Below, one piece after another: positions 2,837 through 17,246 of a stretch of 64,000 bases of DNA. The stretch is taken from positions 1 through 64,000 of the forward strand of contig JBEKTQ010000011.1 in NCBI GenBank assembly GCA_049515895.1. Direction: 5' to 3'. The notes under the pieces were generated by a model. That model did not search any database. It worked only from the letters and a program-made list of their open reading frames with translations, and was not told where the DNA came from. Positions within the stretch are counted from its first letter, which is position 1, and each line of letters opens with the position of its first letter. The translations under genes and the position numbers were made by a program. The DNA comes from Candidatus Bathyarchaeia archaeon (lineage in GTDB: Archaea; Thermoproteota; Bathyarchaeia; Bathyarchaeales; Bathycorpusculaceae).

Positions 2837-3834
2837 CCAAACCTGATTTGATTTATTGTTGGCCTAAATCCAAGTCTATTTAATAAAACAGGTATGTTGA
2901 GAATTCTTATACCCTCGCGGGCGTATTTCTCGGCAATTGCTATGGGACGAACTTGGGGATTTGAGCGGTCTCCTTGTACTAAATAAAAATATGCTAAGAG
3001 GCTCATCAAGGAAGGCATTACGGAATAGTACTTTTCGTAAGTTTCAGGATGCATTTCGAGTCTCTCAGGGAAACCATAAAGTGCTTTCATATAGGTGAAT
3101 ACTTTTGAATGTCTACTTACGAGTTCTTCAGTGTATCTAAAAAAGGGAGATCTACTTCCTGAGTTTAGTCTGCAAGCGGCCCAATGAAAATCGCTGTTAT
3201 ATTCTTCTGAGAGTCTCTTGTTAGCGGCAATAACTAGTTTGCTGTCAGAATTCTTTACAAAGTAAAGTGGTATGCAGCCTTTTTCTCGAAGTTCTTGGTC
3301 CATTTTTTCGATGTAGCCTGATACGTTCCCGCCAAGCAAAGGTCCGTCTATTAGGATGATTGAATGGGGTTCAACGCTAGCAAGTATTGACCCAGTTTTA
3401 GCATTTGTTAGTATAAGGTTGCGCTCTTCAGCGGTGTTTTCGGCGTAGTGTATGTCCTCACTCGCTGAGTTTTTGAATTTTTTCATTCCCGTCAAAAAGT
3501 AGGGCGAAACAGACAAGTTGAAACAATATTCGTTTTCGATTTTGATTGTTGAGGAGCTGCAAAACAAGAGATCCCCCTCCAATGCTCTGTAATCTTGAAC
3601 GCTTTCGTCGTACGCGAAAATGTTCCACTCCTTCATCAGCTCGTTGCATTCAGGCTTAATCTCGTGAGTTTCTTCAAAACTCTCTAAGCAACTTACTGTT
3701 GAACTAAAATTCGATGAGAGATCGGGAATTTGCGAAGAGAGTTCTGATGGAATAAATGATACAAATTTTGTAGCTTTTTTGCTGATATTTTCCAGCCTTA
3801 TTTTGATTCTACTCAAGTCGAGGCTACTTTTCAC
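2833..3834 (-). CDS. nurA: NurA-like nuclease (RNase H-like fold)
   Basis: NurA-type motifs FAYDES, IILIDGPL, FVKNS and C-terminal PIAIAEKYAR; lies immediately upstream of herA. Confidence 0.78.
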   Translation of the reverse strand: MKSSLDLSRIKIRLENISKKATKFVSFIPSELSSQIPDLSSNFSSTVSCLESFEETHEIKPECNELMKEWNIFAYDESVQDYRALEGDLLFCSSSTIKIENEYCFNLSVSPYFLTGMKKFKNSASEDIHYAENTAEERNLILTNAKTGSILASVEPHSIILIDGPLLGGNVSGYIEKMDQELREKGCIPLYFVKNSDSKLVIAANKRLSEEYNSDFHWAACRLNSGSRSPFFRYTEELVSRHSKVFTYMKALYGFPERLEMHPETYEKYYSVMPSLMSLLAYFYLVQGDRSNPQVRPIAIAEKYAREGIRILNIPVLLNRLGFRPTINQIRFG

Positions 3835-4907: not shown

Positions 4908-6783
4908 TTAAACATCTTTTTCTATTCTTGATTTGAAGAATCTTTCTGAATCTTTGTCCATGAAATAAATATAGCATCCTTTCATGCCTCGCGATAGCAA
5001 TACTCGATAGGTGTTTTTTACTAGTGCTGTGAAGTTGTCTTTGGATCTTTTTACTACGTTATCTGCGGAGTTTTCAGCGTGACCTTTCCATGTTTGTTCG
5101 TCAAAGCTGTAAACAAGATCGTTTCCAAATATCACTCCGGCGTAGTCGAATTCGAATCCTTGTGCTGTGTATACGCAGCCTATCTGGTTTATTCCGCTCG
5201 GGTCATGTGCCCATAGATTTGATTTTGGGATTCCTTGGGCTAATATTCTTGCTTCGGGTTTGGCATTCCATGGTCTGTGATAATTACCGATGACTACATC
5301 ATCTTTGAGAGCGCCCTCAGAATCGGGGTTTGACCATGGCCAACAGAAGCCAGCTGTAATTCTTCCGGTATAACCTGTGCTGACTTTGGTTCTTACCGCG
5401 ATTTCAAGATCTTCGGGGCTGCCAAATACCTTCAAATCGAACTCTTCATGCTGATCCCAAATAATGTTGGCAGTCCGTTTGATTCCTAACGTATTGTTCA
5501 CCCAGTTTACAAAGGCATCTGAGCCATTGCAACGGAACTGGGCTTCTAACTCGTATTCAAAAACTTTGCAATTGTTTTTTGCGGCGTATTCCTTGATATA
5601 ATTAACTGAGCCGATTTCTCCCGGTCGTACTACCTGGTCATCATCAATGAAGAACGCAGAAACTTTAGAGGCATTTAACAATTCTTCAATTTGTGGAACA
5701 TCTGATCTCTCAGCTTTGGGAGTGAATCTATTGAAGGATGTTTCTCTGAGCCGGTGGGCTTCATCAGCGATTAGAACATCTATGGCGTTGTTTTCTGCAT
5801 CGGTGTAGCTGTTAAAATACTTGAATTGGGCTGCTCCTCGTGATTTTATTATCCTTCTCAGAGTCTCAGTGAAGGCACGTGATCCAGTTGCATATTGGGC
5901 GTTGTACCCTTTCAATAGCAAGTCAGCCATGAGGTTGATGGCGATGACTGACTTACCTGTTCCTGGGCCTCCTTTGATTATGATGACGGTTCTTTGCTTG
6001 TCGTGAAACCCAGTTTTAGCGCAGGAAAAAACTTTGTCGTAAACAACCTGTTGCTCATCCAACAGGATGTATTCCGTCATCCCCCTGATCACGTTGCCCA
6101 CGTGATCCATCAGCTTCTTGCTGGGTCTATACTTGCTCACTTCAATTCGTTTGAGTACATCTACTCCGTTGCCCATCTCAAGCTTCGTAGTCAAATACCT
6201 TGATAACTTCGGGACATCATCGGCGGTGAAAAGAGGGGAACTGGAAAGAGCATCCCAAAATTTCTCTGAGAACAAAATGTCTTCCGAATAGAGGCTATAG
6301 TTGTGCAGGTAGGCGCAGGCGTTGAGGATGACGGGGTTGGGTTCCTCGTAAAAAGCGGTGTGAGTATCTTTCAAATATCGTTTGTATTGTCTTACCTGAA
6401 CGGAGGGATGCAAAAGTTCCCTTCTGCCACCTACCCAGGTGATAACTTCATTTTTTCCAGGTGCATCTTCGCAGTGGTCCCCACTGTTTCAACTCAATGA
6501 TGACAGCGTTATCTTTGGCATTGGAATCTCGCCCACAAATTAAACAATCCAGCCTCTTAGACGTCATAGGTAATTGATATTCGAGCATTATCCCCTGATC
6601 GGTTAGTTTTGCGTGCTCAAAAACCATTGAAACTGCCCGCAATGAGTTTCTCCACGAATTCAACTCGCTATGAGAGGGATAATGTCTAAAGTAACCAAAG
6701 AAGGCAAGTCTAAGTTTCTCGGCTATTTGGTTCTGAACGGTGTCTTCGAGAAATTGCTGTGAAGTTCCCGCGAACAACCTCAA
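4908..6783 (-). pseudogene. DUF2075 / Schlafen group-3-like nuclease-helicase, split by a +1 frameshift
   Basis: The N-part (6448-6783) has a PD-(D/E)xK-like RLDCLI...IIELKQW segment. The C-part (4908-6413) has Walker A GGPGTGKS, DEAH and YTAQGFEFDY. Removing one G from the G4 run at 6479-6482 gives one 624-aa ORF. It may be a sequencing error. Confidence 0.8.
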
Positions 6784-7001
6784 GCTAATGCCTCATAAAC
6801 AGGTAATGACCTTTCATCCTTTAAGCTTATCAACCAAGTTTCCGTTCAAGCAAGCGAAATGCTCTTTTTAAACTAAGCTGGCGCATTACTAATGATGCAA
6901 AATTTTCAAGTTTTACCTAGACATTGAAATCTTGATAAATATCTATATATGGCTGTTGTTCAGAATGTTTTGGGTAGAAATGGTATTGTTGGTGGGTGCA
7001 T

Positions 7002-7397
7002 ATGAGTAAACCTGTTGATGTCGGAGAGTTGCGGGTTGGCGGTTACATGATGATTGAGGGCGAACCGTGTCGCATAGTTGACATCGCCAAGTCTAAGCCT
7101 GGAAAACACGGGTCAGCCAAAGCCAGAATCGTTGCGATAGGCGTGTTTGATAAGCAGAAGCGGCAGTTCGTTAAGCCAGTTGACCTTGGCGCGGAAGTGC
7201 CAATAATCGATAAGAGGGCGGGACAGGTTTTCGCTGTGAGTCCATCCGGGATACAAATTATGGATTTGGAAACCTACGAGTACATAGACGCACCCTATCC
7301 CGAAGAGGAAGAAGTTCCCAAAGCCAAGTTAACACCCGGTACAGAAATCGAATACTGGAAAATACTGGGCAGAGTAAAAATCGTAAGGGCAAAGTAA
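7002..7397 (+). CDS. eif5a: Translation factor aIF-5A
   Basis: Hypusine motif KPGKHGSAKAR; TATA-like box at about 6936-6950. Confidence 0.97.
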   Translation: MSKPVDVGELRVGGYMMIEGEPCRIVDIAKSKPGKHGSAKARIVAIGVFDKQKRQFVKPVDLGAEVPIIDKRAGQVFAVSPSGIQIMDLETYEYIDAPYPEEEEVPKAKLTPGTEIEYWKILGRVKIVRAK

Positions 7398-7457
7398 GCA
7401 AGCGCCCGGCGCTTTATTCTCTTTTAATCATTATTTTAAAATTGATTTTGAAGCTTT

Positions 7458-7658
7458 TTAGCCCCACCAATTCCAATCAAGCATCTTGAAAACTACATAC
7501 AATGCCATAAGAATTATGCCCCAGCTCAAAGCAATGCCCCCGATTGCAAGAACCATGTTATTGTGCACGTTAGTGTAAATTAGCCAAGCACTTAAGGCAG
7601 TTAAACCGACAAGCAATAGAAAGAAGCTTCCGGCGTGAATTACACGTTCTCCGCTCAA
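7458..7658 (-). CDS. Small 2-TM membrane protein
   Basis: Two hydrophobic helices; GGTG SD-like motif upstream. Confidence 0.65.
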   Translation of the reverse strand: MSGERVIHAGSFFLLLVGLTALSAWLIYTNVHNNMVLAIGGIALSWGIILMALYVVFKMLDWNWWG

Positions 7659-7927
7659 CCGCTAACACCTTAATGGTGATATGTGCTCGTTGGTTGCTTA
7701 AAGATTTTTCATTAATGTTTATTTTCCAGTTGGCTCTTTTTTAGGTGAAGCCAATGATGCATGAAGAGCCGTCTGAATCGTGAAGAACAAACAATATGGG
7801 GAAACTGAGGCTTCACAACACGCAAACTAAGTAAAAGTGACTACTCTTAGTTGCTGTGGTTCTGCAGTCACAAGTTTTTAAATTCTCGAATCTTTCATGT
7901 GTAAGGCAGGAATTGGAGATTGATATT

Positions 7928-8245
7928 ATGCCGCAATACGCCTTAATTGGAACTCATCCTCCTAACGTGTGCCCAATGTCCAACAAAGCAGCAAGAGAGA
8001 TGGCTAAGAAAGCCTACGAACAGCTTCCGTCGCTCTGCAAGAAACTTAACGTGAAACTTCTCTTAGACCTTCACCTTGACCCCAACCACAAAGCTTTCAT
8101 GCTGTTTGAAGCCCCTTCTGCGGAAGCTGTGAGGGATCTTGTGACGATGGCTGGGTTCTTGTACTTTTTAGACTTCGATTTCCACCTCGTCACTCCCATA
8201 TCGGAAGTATTGAAACTTGCGGATAAGATGCCAACAATATACTAA
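7928..8245 (+). CDS. Hypothetical protein, GYD/DUF3303-like ferredoxin-fold
   Basis: GGAG SD before ATG 7928; HPPNVCP and FEAPSAEAV motifs; T-rich terminator follows. Confidence 0.65.
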   Translation: MPQYALIGTHPPNVCPMSNKAAREMAKKAYEQLPSLCKKLNVKLLLDLHLDPNHKAFMLFEAPSAEAVRDLVTMAGFLYFLDFDFHLVTPISEVLKLADKMPTIY

Positions 8246-8358
8246 GGACCAAAAAACCAACAACTCCCTCTTTTTCTTTTTGTTCAATTAGTCTGAATTC
8301 GTTTTTCTGGCAATAGCTCGAACAATTTTTTTGGAAGAGCTATATCTTTTGCAAAACC

Positions 8359-8595
8359 TCAACAAAGCGTGTAAATCATCAAATAATCCTTGCCACGGTC
8401 TATTCTTAATTTATGGCTCTTAACATAATCGTCTAACTCATTAAAACATGATTGCTTAGCCAAAGCTGAGTCAGCCAGAACTACGTAGCCCTCTGTTTCA
8501 CTGTCACAAATACCCCACTCTTCAAATCCCTTGTATATTTTTGGACGGCAGGCGGGAAATTTCTTGGAGAACTCTATAGCTTCAGCAAAATCCAT
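8359..8595 (-). CDS. Hypothetical protein
   Basis: 78-aa ATG ORF with plausible composition; no family recognised. Confidence 0.55.
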   Translation of the reverse strand: MDFAEAIEFSKKFPACRPKIYKGFEEWGICDSETEGYVVLADSALAKQSCFNELDDYVKSHKLRIDRGKDYLMIYTLC

Positions 8596-8653
8596 GCGAA
8601 TTAGCCCAATTTACTTGATACATTGGCAAAAGGGCACAAAAAAGAGAAAAAGC

Positions 8654-8827
8654 CTATAGTTTTTCTGGGGCGCAGAGGTTTTCCGCTTTGGCCGCTGTTC
8701 GCATGCAGCCTTTGCAGATGTACTTCGCGTCTTTCACGAGTGGCTTTATCTTCTCTATTGGGGCTTTGTCCTCTACCATTTTGCAGAGGTGTTTTTCATG
8801 TCCTGGATGAGGTTGAGCTTTCGACAA
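8654..8827 (-). CDS. Unannotated 57-aa His/Cys metal-binding small protein (MSKAQPHPGHEKHLCKMVEDKAPIEKIKPLVKDAKYICKGCMRTAAKAENLCAPEKL)
   Basis: AGGTG SD, TTG start, HLC...CxxC...LC pattern and T-rich terminator; below the ORF-track cutoff. Confidence 0.75.
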   Translation of the reverse strand: MSKAQPHPGHEKHLCKMVEDKAPIEKIKPLVKDAKYICKGCMRTAAKAENLCAPEKL

Positions 8828-9007
8828 AACTTACACCTTAACTAATGGCGTCATGATGTTAGATATACTATTGTGATTGTACCCACGCAATAACAGAGTT
8901 TAAATCGTTATTTTTCGCGCTTTGGCTTATCGCAATATTATGCGTCAAAGACTGTTGGAAAAATGTTCTGGTGAAAGCGGTGTCATGGGTTACTTTTCTC
9001 TTGCTGC

Positions 9008-9376
9008 TCAGATGTCAATGAATAAGTCGTTGTCGTCCACTTTCAGTTCGTAAGTTCGTAAGCTACTGCGTGTTCCGGAGATTGCTCTTCCTGTTGTTAC
9101 ATCGAAGCTTGAAAAATGGCGAGGGCAGGTAACAATTGAGTTATTCAGAGTACCATTGGACAACACAGCACTCATATGGGGGCATCTATCGCCGACGGCA
9201 TAGAACTTGCCTTCAACGTTAGCAATAAGTATCTCTGTTCCATCAACTTCCACATGCATCATCTTGCCTACCGTAATATCGGTTGTTTTGGCAACTTTCA
9301 CAAAAGTCGCAGTGCGTTCCCATGCTTCAATTACCGCAGAAAAATCTACTTGTTTCGGAATATTTTCTGTTGCCAT
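9008..9376 (-). CDS. Rieske [2Fe-2S] ferredoxin
   Basis: CPH...CPRH Rieske ligands. Confidence 0.92.
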   Translation of the reverse strand: MATENIPKQVDFSAVIEAWERTATFVKVAKTTDITVGKMMHVEVDGTEILIANVEGKFYAVGDRCPHMSAVLSNGTLNNSIVTCPRHFSSFDVTTGRAISGTRSSLRTYELKVDDNDLFIDI

Positions 9377-9767
9377 AGCCGAGCACTACCTAAACAGCAT
9401 GTTTAAGCTAGATAAATTAAATTTATGAATTATATGTTCATAATAATCTTGGCGTTGGATGTACTTAGTAAGTTGTCAACCGATAAGTAATAGCCACTTG
9501 GAAAAGTCTTATCAACCTTGAGGTGACAGAACCCCAACGTGTAAAGTCGTCTATTGTTAATACAATTTTTGCGAACAGCAAAAATATCACCCGAAAAATT
9601 AACAGTGAAGATCTATCGCCAGAAAGTTAAAAGAACTTATTAGTGCAATCTCGGAAGCAAACCAGCCAACCTGACATAAAAGTTGTCTTTTCAATTCTGT
9701 TTCTAAACGGGGTAGTTGTGTTCAGTATTCTAAATTCATAACTAACTTATTATCAAATCATTAGTAT

Positions 9768-12494
9768 TTGGCTTGTGGGGCATGGATAATACAAACCCTC
9801 AACCAGAATAGAATAGTTGTAGAAGTCCCTGATTTAGCGGCTTCAAACAAAAAGAGCGTTATTCGAGTTTTACATGTTGACGACGACTCCTCTATACTAG
9901 AGATTTCAAAACTGATTATGATGGATATGGATGCCAGCCTTGAGTTTGACAACGCCATCTGCGTTGATGAAGCCTTCAAAAAACTATCAACTGGGCAGTA
10001 TGATGTTGTGATTTCTGATTATGAGATGCCCCAAAAAAATGGCCTGCAGTTTCTAAAAGAGTTGCGTGAGGGAAAAAACGAGATTCCGTTTATATTATTC
10101 ACAGGTAAAGGTAGAGAAGAAGTTGTTATCCAGGCTCTAAATTTAGGTGCAGACCACTACGTTAACAAGCAGGGTTCGCCTGAAACAGTCTACAGTGAAT
10201 TGGCACATTTGGTTTCTTCAGCAGTTGAAAAATCCCGCGCTAAGCTTAGAAATGAAAATGATTCCTTGGCGCTTCATAATGTTCGTGATGCCATAGTTTC
10301 GTCGGACGCAAACTTCATAATTACCTCGTGGAACAAAGCCGCAGAAGAATTATTCGGGTTTGGTTCTGATGAAGTGCTACAGAAAAATGTGGATGATGTT
10401 TTCGAAAAAATAGAAGTAGAGCCAACCTACGACGAATTAATGCGGCAGTTGAAGACTACTGGTCAATTTCAAGGAGAAGTAGTTTACCAGAACAAAAATA
10501 GGCAAAAACGAAATGGCGATCTCCACATAGCCTCAATTGTATCCGAAAATGGCAAATATCTTGGCAACGTAGCTGTTTGCAGCGACATAACTGAACGCAA
10601 GAGAACTGAAAAGGCATTAATTGAAAGCGAGGCAAATTACAAAAACTTGATCAATGGCATGAATGATTCTGCTTGGGTCATTGATCTTGACGGAAACTTT
10701 GTTTATGTAAACGTCGCCGCTGCTAAGTCATTGGGCTATTCCAAAGAAGAGTTGTTGTCTATGGGAGTCAAAGGCATTGACAAGCATCTGAGCCCAGAGC
10801 AAATCAAAAATCTTGTTAGCGCCATGGCAGTTGTCAAGAATCGGGTTTTTGAAACAGTTCATACCAAAAAGGATGGGAAGGAAATTCCAGTGGAGATCAG
10901 CTCCAGTTTGATAACCTTCCAAGGAAAGCAAGCAGTTTTAAGCATTGCCAGAAACATTTCTGAACGCAAAAACGCCCAAGATGCTCTCAGACAAGAGCGT
11001 GATATGCTTGAATCAGTTACAGCAGCGAGCGGTGCTGGCCTGGTAATTGTCAGTAAAGACTACCGCGTGCAATGGGCAAACGAATTCATAAAACGCTATA
11101 AAGGTGACACAATAGGCAAATTATGCTATGCAACGCTCAACAGTTTAGACTCACCTTGCCATGATTGTGGTGTAGCAAAAATTTTTGCAGGGAAAACACT
11201 TCTTGACTCTCATGAATATTTCTCTACGACTGTTGATGGCAACCCATATTGGGTTGAAATTGTCGCTACGCCCATTACAGATGAGAATGGAAACGTCATA
11301 TCTGCAGTGGAGATTGCCGTAGATATAACTGAACGCAAAAAAGCCGAGGACAAACTGCGTGAGAGCCAGTACTTAACCCAAAAAATACTCGATTGCTCTC
11401 CTAACCTTATTTACATATACGATTTACTGGATAAGAGAAACGTTTACACCAATAGAGAGTTGCCTAATTTCTTAGGGTATACTCCTGAACAGGTCAAGTC
11501 GATGGGTTCCGAGTTGTTTGCCAACATTCTGCATCCTGACGACGCCGAAGTCGTGGCTAAGCATCATGCCCTTTTCGTGAATGCACCCAATAATGCAACT
11601 TTTGATGTTGAGTACAGAATGAAAAACTCAAGTGGAGAATGGCAATGGCTACGCAGCCGCGACACATTGTTTGCTCGCACTAAAGAAGGCTTAGGAAAAC
11701 AAATTCTTGGTATATGCGAAGATATCACTGAAGGCAAAAAAGCTGAAGAAGAAGTGAACCAAATGATGGATCAGTTGGTATTGGTTAACGAAAAATTGGG
11801 TGTTGTGGGAGGCTTAACTAGACATGATGCCCGAAACAAGCTTTCAGTAATAAATGGTTCTACATATTTGCTCAAAAAGAAACATAGTGACCAAGCAGAT
11901 GTCGTGGAGACGCTAAACAGGATTGAGCAAGCGATTAAGGAGATTGTCAAGATTTTTGATTTCGCCAAAATATATGAACAAATCGGCGCGGAAGAACTGA
12001 CTTACATTAAGGTGGGCGAGAAATTAAATGAAGCAAGGGCTCTTTTTTCGGGGCCTATTCCAACGATAACTAATGAATGCCACGGGTTAACAGTGCTGGC
12101 GGACCCGTTTCTGAGGCAGCTGTTTTTTAATTTTATTGATAACACAAGGAAATACGGTGAAAAAACCATAACAATAAGAGTATACTTCGAAAAGGCTGAT
12201 GAAGACTGCTTAAAGTTGGTCTATGAGGATGACGGTGTTGGCGTGCCTTTCGAGAATAAGCAGCGTCTCTTTAACGAAGGCTTTAGCACAGGCGGTAGCA
12301 CAGGCTTCGGACTATTTCTTACCAAGAAAATGATAGATGTCTATGGCTGGACAATAACCGAAGAAGGTGAACCTGGCAAAGGAGCCAAATTCACTATAAC
12401 CATTCCAAAACTAAACAAAAACGGAAAAGAAAACTATCAAATCGTACCTCAAGCGAATAGTGTCATAAATTTGCCGAACCCAACAAATGGCTAA
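9768..12494 (+). CDS. Hybrid sensor histidine kinase (REC - multiple PAS - HATPase)
   Basis: REC VLHVDDD...SDYEMP...FTGKG; about four PAS/PAC repeats (DITERK); H-box RHDARNKL; N box NFIDNT; G boxes DDGVG and GFGL. The start may lie further downstream. Confidence 0.93.
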   Translation: MACGAWIIQTLNQNRIVVEVPDLAASNKKSVIRVLHVDDDSSILEISKLIMMDMDASLEFDNAICVDEAFKKLSTGQYDVVISDYEMPQKNGLQFLKELREGKNEIPFILFTGKGREEVVIQALNLGADHYVNKQGSPETVYSELAHLVSSAVEKSRAKLRNENDSLALHNVRDAIVSSDANFIITSWNKAAEELFGFGSDEVLQKNVDDVFEKIEVEPTYDELMRQLKTTGQFQGEVVYQNKNRQKRNGDLHIASIVSENGKYLGNVAVCSDITERKRTEKALIESEANYKNLINGMNDSAWVIDLDGNFVYVNVAAAKSLGYSKEELLSMGVKGIDKHLSPEQIKNLVSAMAVVKNRVFETVHTKKDGKEIPVEISSSLITFQGKQAVLSIARNISERKNAQDALRQERDMLESVTAASGAGLVIVSKDYRVQWANEFIKRYKGDTIGKLCYATLNSLDSPCHDCGVAKIFAGKTLLDSHEYFSTTVDGNPYWVEIVATPITDENGNVISAVEIAVDITERKKAEDKLRESQYLTQKILDCSPNLIYIYDLLDKRNVYTNRELPNFLGYTPEQVKSMGSELFANILHPDDAEVVAKHHALFVNAPNNATFDVEYRMKNSSGEWQWLRSRDTLFARTKEGLGKQILGICEDITEGKKAEEEVNQMMDQLVLVNEKLGVVGGLTRHDARNKLSVINGSTYLLKKKHSDQADVVETLNRIEQAIKEIVKIFDFAKIYEQIGAEELTYIKVGEKLNEARALFSGPIPTITNECHGLTVLADPFLRQLFFNFIDNTRKYGEKTITIRVYFEKADEDCLKLVYEDDGVGVPFENKQRLFNEGFSTGGSTGFGLFLTKKMIDVYGWTITEEGEPGKGAKFTITIPKLNKNGKENYQIVPQANSVINLPNPTNG

Positions 12495-12641
12495 CCAGCT
12501 TTTTTCTCTTTCCGGGTGAACTAATTGGAAAAAAACAAGGGCCCTCTCCAGTATCAGGGATGTTTTCTGTTTCTCTTGGTTTCCCATGGTGGTTTGGTTT
12601 GTGAGCGTGGGAACCCCTATAAGCAACTTATGACACGCGTC

Positions 12642-12776
12642 ATGGTTATGTTATCTCGTGATTGTGACGGATGCGAAAGACAACTTTCTGAATGTAAACG
12701 CCGCTTTGCCCAAGTTTGTTTAGGCGAGAAAGTTTATTGTCCGGACGGCACAGCCCATCTAGTTGACTGCGAATAG
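12642..12776 (+). CDS. Small Cys-rich protein (about 44 aa)
   Basis: CDGC...C...C...YCPDG...H..DC; TATA-like CTATAAG about 20 nt upstream, so probably leaderless. Confidence 0.55.
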   Translation: MVMLSRDCDGCERQLSECKRRFAQVCLGEKVYCPDGTAHLVDCE

Positions 12777-12917
12777 TTAAAGTCAAAGAATAAGGCTATT
12801 CTCCGAAGACTCTTCATCTTATTGGACATTGTAAATTAGGCCAATTAGTTGCCGTTTCTACTCGTAACTATGACTTCTTGGATTGTTTTTCACTCTTTGT
12901 CAAAGCGATTTTTCAGT

Positions 12918-13253
12918 TTAGGCGAATACGAAACCGATGATTACGCCTATTATGAATCCGATGCTTACCGGTAGTATGCCTATGATGAGTGCTCCGTATT
13001 GATACACAATGGGGCCGTATTGAGTGGCGTAATTTTTCAACTCACTCAGACTTAAGCCGAAAAAGCCGAAATAAGCTGCCACGAATAATACGATTGCAGC
13101 TACAATTGCGATCTTTAGGAATGAATGGATTAGAAATCCTACAATCAATCCGACGACAAATATTATTATCATAATTACATATGGTGGCAAGCCACCAATG
13201 CTTCCAGAAGTGATAAAATGAAATACTTGATCTATCGCGCCCAAAATCTGCAA
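12918..13253 (-). CDS. Small multi-TM membrane protein (FUN14-like)
   Basis: GAAGGAG SD before TTG 13253; three hydrophobic helices with Gly-rich GFIIG. Confidence 0.65.
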   Translation of the reverse strand: MQILGAIDQVFHFITSGSIGGLPPYVIMIIIFVVGLIVGFLIHSFLKIAIVAAIVLFVAAYFGFFGLSLSELKNYATQYGPIVYQYGALIIGILPVSIGFIIGVIIGFVFA

Positions 13254-13396
13254 CTCCTTCGTTAATTCTATGAAATGTAAAATGGCTATTAATATTTTCC
13301 GCTTTATATTCTCTTTTAGTTGTGGTTGCTGTCTGGCAATCACATAATCTTAAACCGCAAAAACTATTTATAATCAATTCAAAGAATGTGTAAAAA

Positions 13397-14023
13397 TTGG
13401 TAGGTATTATCCCTAGTGAAGTTTTTAGAGATTTGTTGGCGTACTATAAGAATGCCGGCTTGAACGTAGAACTTTTGGAGACAGACAATCCACAAACGAT
13501 ACCTGGAGAAAAGTCCATAAAGGTAGGCGGAAGAAAATTCGACCTAGTAATTCTCAAATACGCCGGTGGAAGCATCGGAGCGGGCAGAGGATACACAGTC
13601 GGTCCCACGATAGGTTACCAACGTGAAAGCCTTGGACCTACAAACATCAATTTTAATTACGTCGTCAAGGGCATCGGCAATATGAATGAAAACGACCTAA
13701 AGGCTCAAGTTAAAGAGAAAACCGAGGGTTTCATTTCCAAGAAACTTGTTGATATTCATTGGGAAGGAGGACTGCTGGCAGGACAATTGAACGGCGATCT
13801 CGAACTGAAGAACATGATTATGAAGTCAAGTGTTGTACCGTTAAAGGTTGAACCCGACAAAAAGAACAATTGTGTACATATAATCAACGAGAAAGGAATC
13901 AGAATAATCATAACGCGGTCAGGAATCATAATCCAGAAAGCTGAGACGAGAGCCGAAAACTTTCCCCCAATCGAAATCCTTGACGTAATCGACAAGATAG
14001 CTACCTACGTGAAATCCGTCTAA
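13397..14023 (+). CDS. Hypothetical protein
   Basis: 208-aa ORF with a TTTATAA box upstream. Confidence 0.7.
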   Translation: MVGIIPSEVFRDLLAYYKNAGLNVELLETDNPQTIPGEKSIKVGGRKFDLVILKYAGGSIGAGRGYTVGPTIGYQRESLGPTNINFNYVVKGIGNMNENDLKAQVKEKTEGFISKKLVDIHWEGGLLAGQLNGDLELKNMIMKSSVVPLKVEPDKKNNCVHIINEKGIRIIITRSGIIIQKAETRAENFPPIEILDVIDKIATYVKSV

Positions 14024-14169
14024 AAACGATAAATTCCAAAAACAAAACGCGCTTGGATGTATACGCAGAATACGAAACCCCGTTTCTCAAATAAGCTTTC
14101 GAATTTAGGGACAAGGCAGCGCGCATGCCAGTGTGTTGCTAATTTAGCTTTTTTGTGTTTAGTTTCTGC

Positions 14170-14731
14170 TCATCTTGCGAGTAAGGTTATGGACCGGGCT
14201 TTTTCTACCCTGTTTAACCGAAATGCAGCAACTGCGTTGAGTAGCATAGCGATCATGCATAACAATGCATGAACAGTGATCCTTTCTATACTCCTGACCC
14301 AATGCTTCTCCAAACATAGCTGTTCTTTGAGCCTAGAATTAACCCGCTCAACCGAAGACCTCAACTTGTAAAGCCGCTTCTCGCCAGTTGGTCCATGAGT
14401 TCTGAAAAACCGGTCCACTCTCAACAGGCCTTTCTTCTCTCGCCGCTGATTTGCTGGAAAAGGAATCTCCGCCCTAACGCCCTTGGAGGAAGCCAGATCC
14501 CTCAGGTTTTTGCTAGAATATTGCGAATCGACAACAAGCAGTCTCACACGACCTTTGGCTGCTTTTAAACCCTTTTCAAGAAGTGCAGGAGCATGTTTCT
14601 TCTCATTATCATTAGCTGAAGCAACGATAACTGCTATAGGCAACTCAGATTTCGCGTCCACCGCAATGTGCAGCTTGTAGCCCAACTCGTAAGTTTTGCC
14701 GTTCCTGCCCACCCTAGCTTCAGGATCGGCA
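14170..14731 (-). pseudogene. Transposase C-terminal half (second D and E of DDE)
   Basis: GYKLHIAVD, LVVDSQY and YKLRSSVERVNSRLK; homology stops at 14731. Confidence 0.88.
14634..14731. repeat. 98-bp perfect direct repeat, copy 1 (copy 2 at 16449-16546)
   Basis: ctataggcaactcag...caggatcggca is identical at both positions. Confidence 0.93.
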
Positions 14732-14899
14732 GCGCGCGCGCTATGCCCGTGTTGCGGAGAATGGGAAGACCTGACTGAGCACCATGTCAAGTCTTTTGAA
14801 AAGAAGCTTACGGTATGTACAGAGAAATCATGTTTGAAGCATAGCCAAGCGCAATCTTTATATTCTGTTCTAACGATTAGAACCGTTGGAACTGATAGA

Positions 14900-15196
14900 A
14901 TGCCGAAAAAACGCAAAACCCACATTGACATGCGAGAACTAAGCGACATATACAAGAAATTCAAAGACGCCCTCGTAAAAGTGCAACATGAAGTAATCGG
15001 CAGCGCATCCTTAATCAGTTTGTCGGCATTAATGGCTGAATTAGGATATGGTGGCTTAACAAGCAGTGCATACACGGCAGTTGCGGGAGCAGTAATATCT
15101 TTGGCTGGCTTGTTTGGGTATGAAGTAATCTTAATCGGCAAAAACTATTATCTCAAAAAAAAACGTGTGTATTTAGCTCATATTCGTCATCAATAA
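14900..15196 (+). CDS. Hypothetical membrane protein (IS passenger)
   Basis: ATG 14900, basic N-terminus and two hydrophobic segments; the upstream in-frame part is chimeric with the IS. Confidence 0.5.
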   Translation: MPKKRKTHIDMRELSDIYKKFKDALVKVQHEVIGSASLISLSALMAELGYGGLTSSAYTAVAGAVISLAGLFGYEVILIGKNYYLKKKRVYLAHIRHQ

Positions 15197-15344
15197 CTTG
15201 GAAACAGGCTTAAAACGTGAAAAGGAGACCCTTTTGGGCTTGGACTCCACGTTCAACGAACACTGAAAGAGCACTAATTATGGGAGAATCAATGTCATGA
15301 GTTAAATACATACAAACGCGCGCGCTAAAAACAGGAGGCAAAAA

Positions 15345-15473
15345 ATGTTGAATTTAACGGAAGAAAGGTGTTTCTTGGCAAGAGAGGAACACATTGAGTC
15401 ATGTCGTAAGTGTTACGGGTGTGTTGGTTGTCCTGTCTACCAAGCAAAACTCCTTAAAGTATCTGAAAATTGA
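15345..15473 (+). CDS. Unannotated 42-aa Cys-rich protein (CRKCYGCVGCP)
   Basis: Strong AGGAGG SD, ATG start and TTAAATA box upstream. Confidence 0.6.
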   Translation: MLNLTEERCFLAREEHIESCRKCYGCVGCPVYQAKLLKVSEN

Positions 15474-15518
15474 TACGAAGTTTATTGGTCACCCGTTTGG
15501 GTGACAGGAGTGATATAT

Positions 15519-15719
15519 ATGAAGCTTAATAAAAAAGGAATTGCGGTGCTGGTAACAAGCTTGACTATTGCTGTTTCTTACGTTTCTGTACAAGCCAACG
15601 TTATTGGGAGTACACTATTCTTTGGAATCGCTTTCTTTACTATTGCTGGGTATTTTGTTATGCTTTTCCATTTTGTGGTCAGTTCTGCAAATTCAGACCA
15701 AGATGGAGGCTTTTTATGA
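15519..15719 (+). CDS. Small 2-TM membrane protein (IS passenger)
   Basis: AGGAGTG SD; ATGA overlap with the downstream GT2 gene. Confidence 0.65.
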   Translation: MKLNKKGIAVLVTSLTIAVSYVSVQANVIGSTLFFGIAFFTIAGYFVMLFHFVVSSANSDQDGGFL

Positions 15720-16408
15720 CTGAAATTCGCTCAAGTGTCTCAGTGGTTATTGCAACGCTTAATGAAGAAGAAGGAATAGGGCCAACTATTGGTGAGCTGC
15801 AAAAAGTTCTGGATAATCCCTATTTGGTTGTTGTGGATGGCAACAGCGTTGACAGAACCATTGAAATAGCGAAGAATATGGGTGCAGATGTTTTATTGCA
15901 AGAGAGGATTGGAAAAGGAGACGCGATGTTTCAGGGTTTCCAAAATCTAAGCTCAAAAGTGCCCTTTGTTGTTTTTACTGATGCTGATTTCACTTATCCT
16001 GCTGAGTATGTTCCGAAAATGGTTGAGATTTTAGAGCAAAACCCTGACGTGGGCATGGTTATTGGAAACAGGTTTAAAGGCGAAAATAATTTAAGTAAGT
16101 CAGTAACAAACCCATTTTACTTAGGTAACAAGATGCTGGCGCTTGCCCAGTTGGTAATGAACGGTGTTAAGCTTAATGATCCTCTGTCTGGTCTGCGTGT
16201 TGTTAGAAGTGAAATACTCGAAGGCTGGAGACCCAAGAGCAAAGGCTTCGACGTGGAAGCTGAAATGAACGCGATTGTTGGGCGTAAAGGTTACCGAATT
16301 GTTGAAATCCCAGTTGATTACCGGATTAGGCTGGGCGAGAAAAAGCTTAAGCTCCGACATGGCTTGGGGATAATGAAGAGAATTCTCGTCGAAAGTTTAA
16401 AATTTTAG
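15716..16408 (+). CDS. GT2 glycosyltransferase (DPM/DPG synthase-like)
   Basis: VVIATLNEE, VVDGNSVDRT, DAD motif, DPLSG and FDVEAE. Confidence 0.92.
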   Translation: MTEIRSSVSVVIATLNEEEGIGPTIGELQKVLDNPYLVVVDGNSVDRTIEIAKNMGADVLLQERIGKGDAMFQGFQNLSSKVPFVVFTDADFTYPAEYVPKMVEILEQNPDVGMVIGNRFKGENNLSKSVTNPFYLGNKMLALAQLVMNGVKLNDPLSGLRVVRSEILEGWRPKSKGFDVEAEMNAIVGRKGYRIVEIPVDYRIRLGEKKLKLRHGLGIMKRILVESLKF

Positions 16409-16413
16409 CGCGC

Positions 16414-16447
16414 CAGTGTGTTGCTAATTTAGCTTTTTTGTGTTTAG
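16414..16447. repeat. Internal duplicate of the IS right end (34 bp, identical to 14129-14162)
   Basis: cagtgtgttgctaatttagcttttttgtgtttag occurs at both sites; the internal copy is preceded by GCGCGC. Confidence 0.9.
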
Positions 16448-16995
16448 ACTATAGGCAACTCAGATTTCGCGTCCACCGCAATGTGCAGCTTGTAGCCCAA
16501 CTCGTAAGTTTTGCCGTTCCTGCCCACCCTAGCTTCAGGATCGGCACCTCCGCGACTGTTTTCATGAGGATCGCGTTTGCTGTAGGCTTTGATGAAAGTG
16601 GCATCCATAACTATGGTCTTGCCAATAATCAATTCGCCCTTAAGCAGTTCATCGACTAAACTGTTCATTATTCGCTCGAGCCTTTCTACTCCGACGCGAT
16701 TCCTAAACCTCGTCATCTGTGAAGGATGATACGGCTTCTGCTCAGCTTCAATATCGCAGACCTCTCGCAAATCTTGATCATACCACAGCCGTCCATACAA
16801 TTCTCTGTCGCTTGGAATCTGCTTAACCCTCTTCACAATCAACGCTTTGAAAATGCCAATCGGCTTCCTAGCAGGCCTGCCAGCGCCTTCCTGATGGTAA
16901 GCTTCAGACACAACCGCCTCTATGTCATCCAAGTTCAAACTACGCAAAATGGAGCAAGAACATTCATTCTCCTCCATACTATACTGGTTATTCAA
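16444..16995 (-). pseudogene. Transposase N-terminal half (DUF772/InsH-N-like domain plus first D)
   Basis: GAGRP, SDREL, HPSQMTRFRNR and IVMDATFI; truncated after ELPI by fusion to the IS end. Confidence 0.88.
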
Positions 16996-17246
16996 TCGAG
17001 TAAAAATTGTTTAAACAAGAAAATGTCAATCCAAATAATTTAGCAACGGGCTGATGCGCGTTCCGAAATTGATCAAAAATGGTTTTTATTACTTTTTACT
17101 CTGTTAACCTGTACCTAATTCTCTTTGAAGTCCAATTGAATAAAATCTGATAAAGATCACAAAAGGGCGCGCAGTTTGATAGAAAAAGTTCAAAAGAAAA
17201 GCATTAACAAAAATGAACATACTCAGGAAAAAAAGAAGGGGGCTGG

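Follow-up and report, generated by a model that had tools for sequence, protein, structure and literature searches.

Mobile insertion cassettes (MICs), as defined in PMC3913671, are passengers bracketed by the inverted ends of an insertion sequence (IS) and by a target-site duplication, with no working transposase. They are proposed or shown to move in trans by the cognate IS; examples are MIC231 of Bacillus cereus, whose history is given in the same source, and the qnrD and qnrS2 'mic' elements. Transporter insertion sequences (tIS) are, in another source (PMC7986276), insertion sequences with passenger genes inside the IS ends. Here we analyse an element located between positions 14129 and 17053 of a 64,000-nt stretch of DNA, referred to below as the window, which is contig C11 (JBEKTQ010000011.1, positions 1 to 64,000) of a Bathyarchaeia metagenome-assembled genome (MAG; genome bin G000, 53 contigs, 3.18 Mb). 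In this element, passenger DNA carrying a GT2 glycosyltransferase gene separates the two halves of an IS transposase. We conclude that it is a real one-off rearrangement of a common IS and not a new gene-capture system; it is a stable, defective and possibly trans-mobilisable derivative that carries displaced host genes.

The element is a single IS-bounded unit with a matching 4-nt duplication (Table 1). Its outer ends are imperfect inverted repeats, the one at 14129 reading CAGTGTGTTGCTAATTTAGC and the one at 17053, when reverse-complemented, reading CAGCCCGTTGCTAAATTATT, and they have the core CAG-NNN-GTTGCTAA(A/T)TTA, common to the ends in the window and to 23 related copies. An earlier note on this DNA had described outer terminal inverted repeats (TIRs) with a matching ATGC, as well as a perfect 98-bp repeat common to both transposase halves, and we re-found both. 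The ATGC lies directly outside each outer end in the context GCGCGC-ATGC-GCG. A 4-nt match alone would occur by chance in 1/256 of cases, but a shared ATGC is atypical for a family that is normally flanked by GCGC. The two copies of the 98-nt repeat are spaced by 1815 nt, and a perfect repeat of this length cannot be chance. A second perfect direct repeat, of 36 nt (14127-14162 and 16412-16447), consists of the 34-nt IS end and the GC before it. The second 34-bp copy of the right end described in the earlier note is present, but it is a copy of the transposase-distal end, and an extra A sits between it and the 98-nt repeat.

Table 1. Positions in the window of the parts of the element, the genes of its passenger and the adjoining IS tip.
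Feature	Position	Strand	Remarks
Tip (~70 nt) of a second, related IS type, outside the element	14051..14119		ends ...GGGACAAGGCAG, then CGCGC
Target-site duplication copy 1 (ATGC)	14125..14128		same 4-mer after the other outer end
Transposase-distal 603 nt of the IS	14129..14731	-	DDE_Tnp_1, 3.3e-22; colinear with positions 1-603 of intact copies
98-nt direct repeat copy 1	14634..14731		100% identical to 16449-16546
Passenger DNA, 1,682 nt	14732..16413	+	(GC)5 at start, TAGCGCGC at end, (GC)4 inside at 15318-15325
orfA, 98 aa, orphan, hydrophobic C-terminus	14900..15196	+	open frame extends back over the IS/passenger junction to 14696
orfB, 42 aa, Cys-rich, orphan	15345..15473	+	without Pfam family
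orfC, 66-72 aa, two hydrophobic stretches	15501..15719	+	stop overlaps the GT2 start
Complete GT2 glycosyltransferase, 230 aa	15716..16408	+	PF00535, 6.1e-18; AglJ- or dolichyl-phosphate hexose transferase-like
Inner second copy of the 34-nt transposase-distal IS end	16414..16447		canonical join to the passenger (GCGC/CAG)
One extra A at the internal-deletion junction	16448		IS positions 35-505 gone from the right-hand copy
Transposase-proximal 605 nt of the IS	16449..17053	-	DUF772, 4.5e-13; colinear with positions 506-1110 of intact copies
Target-site duplication copy 2 (ATGC)	17054..17057		matches 14125-14128

The left piece of the IS contains the outer 34-nt end (14129-14162) and the C-terminal 186 transposase codons (14173-14730). 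In the right piece lie copy 2 of the 98-nt repeat (16449-16546), the outer end at 17053 and, at 16447-16995, the 183 codons of the transposase N-terminus. Positions 604-1110 of the IS are missing from the left copy and positions 35-505 from the right copy. The 1,815-nt interruption is accounted for by the 1,682 nt of passenger, the additional copy of the 34-nt end, one filler base and the 98-nt duplication of IS sequence.

As a result of this interruption, there is no intact transposase in the element. The minus-strand frame at 14173-14730 encodes the C-terminal part of DDE_Tnp_1 (PF01609, 3.3e-22), and that at 16447-16995, also on the minus strand, encodes DUF772 (PF05598, 4.5e-13) and the start of DDE_Tnp_1. 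The DDE triad is split between them: the N-half carries the first D, and the C-half the second D together with the E. In the joined frame, the DSQY and ERVNS motifs are found at residues 223 and 283. Removal of 1815 nt in silico yields an element of 1110 nt with a stop-free frame of 341 codons, 336 of them counted from the TTG at 16995, exactly the in-frame restoration that the earlier note had calculated. The two IS pieces are exactly complementary and no IS sequence has been lost. We compared the joined 1,110-nt element with 23 near-full-length copies of the IS from other Bathyarchaeia MAGs (alignments of 996-1,115 nt) and found it to be colinear with them; nine of the 23 span positions 1-1104 or more, and the best copy is 91.6% identical. 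The joined frame also aligns without gaps to intact open reading frames (ORFs) of 332-346 aa from other MAGs, and is 90% identical over 341 aa to the one at locus L037, which is intact, 336 aa long and uses the same TTG start. Intact ~1,110-bp copies were found in other peat Bathyarchaeia MAGs. The split of the transposase supports the view, also held in the earlier note, that the unit is non-autonomous and unable to move by itself.

The transposase belongs to a large family, with 931 protein clusters at E<=1e-20 and a typical length of 330 aa. Its members carry DUF772 and DDE_Tnp_1 and are labelled in their sources as 'transposase' or 'IS5 family transposase'. The nearest NCBIfam models are IS1182 and IS5, and the curated cut-off is reached for neither: the intact paralogue at L001:11209-12192 scores 150.5 bits with IS1182 (cut-off 270) and 122.9 bits with IS5_4 (cut-off 140), and the transposase halves of the element score lower than this paralogue. 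The family resembles IS5 and IS1182 in its combination of DUF772 and DDE_Tnp_1, its ~330-aa transposase, its length of ~1.1 kb, its TIRs and its short duplication, and differs from them in scoring below the curated cut-offs of both. All relatives retrieved through the transposase come from peat or sediment Bathyarchaeia MAGs, and the metagenome runs that hold this stretch of the window are peat metagenomes.

A marked preference for GCGC was found at the insertion sites of this family. Among the 23 relatives, GCGC flanks the transposase-proximal end in 21, the transposase-distal end in 20 and both sides in 18, compared with 106 of 4600 random 11-nt windows (2.3%). The copies in the genome of the element itself and the loose ends of metagenome contigs follow the same pattern, ...TAGCGCGC/IS/GCGCGCTA..., where slashes mark the junctions. 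The sequence GCGCGCGC occurs 112 times in the genome, against 18 occurrences expected from base composition. We know of no description of a strong GCGC or (GC)n target preference for IS5 or IS1182, and the listing from a literature search on Bathyarchaeota insertion sequences contained no paper on such elements. This is, then, an IS5/IS1182-like family common in peat Bathyarchaeia that inserts at GCGC-type sites. Within the element, the inner junction (16413/16414) has exactly the canonical form of the family, whereas the outer flanks are an atypical, mutually matching ATGC. Since these flanks are identical as well as atypical, they point to a true 4-nt duplication at a near-consensus site and not to two independent insertions.

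GCGCGC sites are also clustered at the element, with five in 3 kb (14119, 14732, 15318, 16408 and 17167) compared with about one per 5.6 kb genome-wide. The (GC)4 inside the passenger is part of the palindrome-like sequence AAACGCGCGCGCTAAAA, which may be an empty target or an excision scar.

The earlier note had described ~1.7 kb of passenger DNA with a GT2 gene, membrane peptides and a Cys-rich peptide, and this description held: the passenger consists of 1,682 nt with the GT2 gene and three small orphan ORFs. At E<=0.01 no Pfam family could be assigned to orfA, orfB or orfC, and a search of 100 other genomes of the genus yielded no orfA. A lenient re-search, up to E<=5, again left orfA and orfB without a family and gave orfC a sub-threshold match to DUF6006 (E 0.16; 12 bits versus a cut-off of 26.3). 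The GT2 protein matches TIGR04182 (AglJ) with an E-value of 3.4e-39, but at 135 bits it stays under the 325-bit cut-off, and its match to NF041391 (1.3e-27) is also below the cut-off. It is the sole part of the passenger with relatives in other species, as judged from 40 relatives searched. Its orthologues share 86% amino-acid identity with it in genome G016 and 75-80% in G007, G005 and G014. In the latter three genomes the orthologue sits behind a DegT-type aminotransferase, inside a glycosylation cluster, and no IS-family match was present among the listed best tblastx matches of these three stretches, which were not screened directly for ISs. The neighbours of the element in the window are a Schlafen-type helicase, a PAS histidine kinase and an ABC transporter, and there are no glycosylation genes nearby. 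These observations support a passenger that is foreign to the IS and out of its genomic context, displaced from a glycosylation cluster.

Two other readings of the passenger ORFs were dropped. The idea that orfC is a conserved small two-helix partner of the GT2 protein was abandoned, as it is not conserved upstream of the four GT2 orthologues, and an HNH-like reading of the junction-crossing frame (CPCCG...LTEHH) received no Pfam support even at E<=5.

We also carried out the search for a donor locus that the earlier note had advised. It returned only the last 274 nt of the passenger, repeated on contig C10 at 97.4% identity, and no source: the passenger is otherwise single-copy, no donor was found in its own genome, and its first ~1 kb has no relative anywhere searched. 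The C10 copy belongs to a chimeric 227-aa ORF on the minus strand (L001 5117-5805; G000:C10:114116-114804), in which the truncated start of a ~470-aa protein family, 48% identical to proteins of G016, supplies the first 137 aa and the GT2 C-terminus the last ~91 aa, the latter corresponding to window 16140-16413. The homology ends at exactly the GCGC that precedes the IS end in the window. We rejected C10 as the donor locus because the GT2 end is fused there to an unrelated truncated gene, making it another mosaic joint.

Regarding whether the assembled structure is genuine, a JGI contig matches window 5694-16376 at 99.97% identity (3 mismatches) and has the same order of flank, outer end, IS half, 98-nt repeat and passenger. 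In addition, Logan contigs from three metagenome runs of three studies span the IS/passenger junction (X1 and X2 at 14702-16183, X3 at 14681-14832), and X3 also spans the junction between passenger and inner end (16093-16441). The internal-deletion junction, in which the inner end, the A and the repeat follow one another, makes the N-half ORF end in PIV-stop. This ending is present in four assemblies, namely an ENA 26-kb contig, a JGI 123-kb contig, the present MAG and a JGI 2.7-kb contig, the last of which carries a version of the ORF with two amino-acid changes; all four appear to be of the same lineage as the window. Contig depths, which are rough values, were 42.2 and 51.1 for the unique parts of the IS halves versus 34-49 for the flanks in X2, and 8.3 and 7.0 versus 8.1-9.4 in X1. 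The passenger is close to the flanks in depth, with a block/flank ratio of 0.7-0.8 in X1 and ~1 in X2, too rough to use. The earlier note had considered that a repeat-induced misassembly might account for the structure. An intact IS would then truly be at the site and the GT2 block elsewhere. Such an error could be suspected in a 53-contig metagenome bin with four contigs broken by related IS copies, and the contigs of all runs were built with k=31, too short to bridge 98 nt. However, the three novel junctions hold sequence that no graph mis-join could create, the second assembly gives the same order of parts, the unique IS parts are at single-copy depth as far as the rough values go, and the deletion signature also marks the N-half ORF of the 123-kb JGI contig. 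As the junctions recur in other assemblies and metagenome runs, we consider a misassembly extremely unlikely. The GT2 block could instead be native to this place and lie between two independent, damaged IS insertions with a coincidental ATGC match, which we regard as very improbable. Truncated copies and solo ends are indeed common in relatives, with partial matches in 7 of 32 loci in addition to short end-only matches, and synteny cannot rule on the matter because the first ~1 kb of the block is an orphan, as is the left-flank ORF. Nevertheless, independent insertions should show GCGC at each end, as they do in the great majority of relatives, whereas a shared ATGC and a direct-repeat orientation are seen here; the GT2 orthologues belong to glycosylation clusters elsewhere, while this neighbourhood has no such genes; and the overlap of the two fragments is 100% identical, whereas the remaining copies in the genome diverge by at least 16%.

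The reading that we prefer, with a probability of roughly one half, is that of a defective IS derivative formed from one chromosomal 1,110-bp IS copy, the GT2 block having arrived attached to a sister deleted copy that merged with it. A sister copy of the IS would have inserted normally just behind the GT2 stop codon, creating the canonical junction TAGCGCGC/CAGTG, and would then have lost positions 35-505, leaving the TIR-A-repeat junction. The GT2 block with its damaged copy would have merged with a full copy, joined on one side by homology in the shared 605 nt and on the other by an illegitimate event that linked IS position 603 to the (GC)5 with which the block begins; in an equivalent form, two damaged copies flanking the block might have moved together as a composite. 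The 98-nt repeat would then be the stretch in which a copy truncated at its 3' end and a copy with an internal deletion overlap. Between passenger and inner end, TTTTAGCGCGC/CAGTG is an ordinary insertion junction of the family and thus indicates a past normal IS insertion behind GT2. This makes active capture by a resident IS, as a reading of the gene capture put forward in the earlier note, less likely, a merger being simpler. Several points count against the merger: no donor locus was found, the block being single-copy here save for its 3' end on C10; the internally deleted copy is absent as an independent element (0 junction-spanning matches in 119 genus genomes and elsewhere in its own genome); the junction of IS position 603 with (GC)5 shows no evident microhomology to explain it; and the perfect identity of both repeat pairs suits a single-event duplication equally well. 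The data fit both an element built in place and one moved here as a composite. Our second choice, which we consider rather unlikely, is a single templated insertion into the resident IS, either by template switching of the microhomology-mediated break-induced replication type or by abortive gap repair. Synthesis would have departed from the IS beyond position 603, copied from another locus the GT2 block together with 34 nt of a neighbouring IS end, and returned to the IS at position 506, making the 98-nt duplication and the three junctions at once. This would be the closest mechanistic form of 'gene capture', and is comparable to filler DNA in Ds or P-element derivatives and to Pack-type elements. 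It would agree with the 100% identity of both repeat pairs, the exact complementarity of the two pieces with no loss of IS sequence, the one filler base at the re-entry point, the intact outer duplication and a block that begins within an open frame, which is what an arbitrary breakpoint would give. On the other hand, the template locus, with the GT2 block beside an IS end, should persist but is absent from the assembly, there is no microhomology at the switch points, and an IS copy beside GT2 is still required beforehand, so that this explanation is not simpler than a merger. A templated insertion would leave the same picture as a merger, and no donor locus was found to tell them apart.

Two further ideas about the junction at the block start were tried and rejected. 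A cryptic alternative IS end, used in an ISEcp1-style read-out, was considered since GCCCGTGTTGC at 14745-14755 is similar to the end core, but its distance from the junction is wrong. Nor does the window copy have an internal GCGC target at the IS breakpoint, where close relatives read GGCGC.

With respect to mobility, both outer ends and the duplication are intact, and related transposases from other loci of the genome could mobilise the unit by acting on its ends in trans. Candidates are an intact 328-aa copy on C10 and further copies that break contigs C26, C28, C34 and C36; the ends of the contig-breaking copies differ from those of the element by 2 to 4 of 24 nt. We found no second 2.9-kb unit in the own genome, in 40 relatives or, by exact 30-mer search, in JGI metagenome contigs, where the sole contig is the same locus. 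The earlier note had also proposed reversion to autonomy. If the 98-nt repeats recombined, the block would leave as a non-replicating circle of 1,815 nt and an autonomous IS would be restored; what the sequence supports here is the arithmetically exact in-frame restoration. No joint of the recombined form, the circle or the empty site was present in the four metagenome runs, an insensitive search given that k=31 contigs cannot bridge 98 nt. The 640-nt unit resembling a miniature inverted-repeat transposable element (16414-17053) that was delimited in the same note has both TIRs, is small and has no complete transposase, but a duplication of its own is missing, as its flanks differ (GCGC versus ATGC), and so are dispersed copies: there is no other copy in its own genome and no junction-spanning match in 119 other genus genomes.

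The paired contig breaks deserve a separate description. Stretches C26:1-706, C28:33367-34185, C34:1-271 and C36:1-271 end inside related IS copies that are 69-78% identical to the element, with C26 and C28 breaking at about IS position 292 and C34 and C36 at 271-272. This pairing points to at least two further copies, probably complete, that are unresolved in the assembly. C36 and C28 also hold a paralogous glycosylation cluster.

It is doubtful, in our opinion, that the 2.9-kb unit is a working cargo carrier, moved in trans by resident GCGC-targeting transposases and spreading an AglJ-like surface-glycosylation gene among peat Bathyarchaeia, with its repeats as a one-way switch. Recombination between the 98-nt repeats would in that improbable case drop the glycosylation gene and re-create an autonomous IS in one stroke. 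The variant of the PIV-stop ORF with two changes on the 2.7-kb contig, together with the GT2/IS-end junction seen in run X4, may be compatible with a longer and wider history than a single accident.

Run X4, from freshwater sediment, was followed over window 15003-16422. One contig of 1,266 nt is 98.7% identical to passenger positions 15003-16267, and another of 151 nt matches 16317-16422 perfectly, past the end of GT2 and up to 9 nt inside the IS end; the flanks and the IS halves have no cover. The latter, a single low-depth contig, hints that the GT2/IS-end junction exists in another population.

Other loci of the family show related irregularities. In X1 and X2, a loose contig end at window 16446 reveals a further locus, where no more than 11 nt of IS sequence stand between the same 34-nt IS end and (GC)4. 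This is a second instance of a direct fusion between IS-internal sequence and a GC run, as at 14731/14732. At L041 (CAVYHV010000017.1) of another MAG, around 3533-3550, an intact IS is followed by only GC and a second IS end (CACTG/GC/CAGTGCGTT), an arrangement of abutting ends or a tandem insertion. Finally, a degenerate copy of the element's IS at L002 (G000:C45) 86-1180 is 82% identical to it and has its transposase frame in three pieces; the transposase-distal end is replaced, and the copy adjoins a corrinoid-protein/methyltransferase gene pair.

A related IS of a second type has left its tip immediately to the left of the element. Window 14070-14124 matches C10:118451-118397 at 80% identity, where a full copy carrying a transposase ORF of 307 aa ends, and this end has many short matches in relatives. 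The 307-aa transposase is also nearest to IS1182 and IS5, below the cut-offs, and the end reads ...GGGACAAG(G/C)CAG/CGCGC; full copies are located at L001 (G000:C10) 9398-10506 and L032 (G016:C6) 7081-8190. In G016, the full copy lies directly beside an orthologue of the right-flank gene, which lends modest support to the possibility that the two flanks were once contiguous. Among 60 genus genomes, the left-flank ORF is an orphan (0/60) and the right-flank gene has orthologues in 25, in rearranged neighbourhoods, and no empty site was identified by synteny. Further to the left, a hydrophobic 141-aa ORF at window 12918-13343 (minus strand) has no Pfam family. It has a DNA paralogue with 86% identity at G000:C32:1010-1356, and DNA matches of 67-85% identity in 15 of 40 relatives searched, eight of them at 79-85%.

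Taken together, the element opens no new mechanism, but it is a clean natural case of insertion sequences cutting up and re-dealing host genes in an uncultured archaeal lineage, the gene moved here being a protein-glycosylation gene out of its cluster. It helps to define an abundant transposase family with a marked GCGC preference which, as far as our literature search shows, is undescribed. It is also a warning for annotation, as two transposase fragments and a glycosyltransferase can be a single element, and a ready substrate for asking whether recombination between short repeats revives a dead IS.

Compared with the systems introduced above, the element is like a MIC in having a passenger between two inverted ends, a target-site duplication and no working transposase. 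It differs from MICs in keeping both transposase halves, of 183 and 186 codons, which together encode the whole protein, and in its extra internal end and 98-nt duplication; moreover, it is known from one locus only, in an archaeal host, and its mobilisation in trans is putative. tIS keep an intact transposase, with the passengers beside it. The element has passenger genes inside its ends as they do, but here the passenger disrupts the transposase. Like a composite transposon, it contains host DNA between two directly oriented copies of one IS, and its outer ends share a target duplication. Unlike in a composite transposon, there is no inner transposase-proximal end and neither copy is complete, the two being complementary deletion derivatives that overlap by 98 nt.

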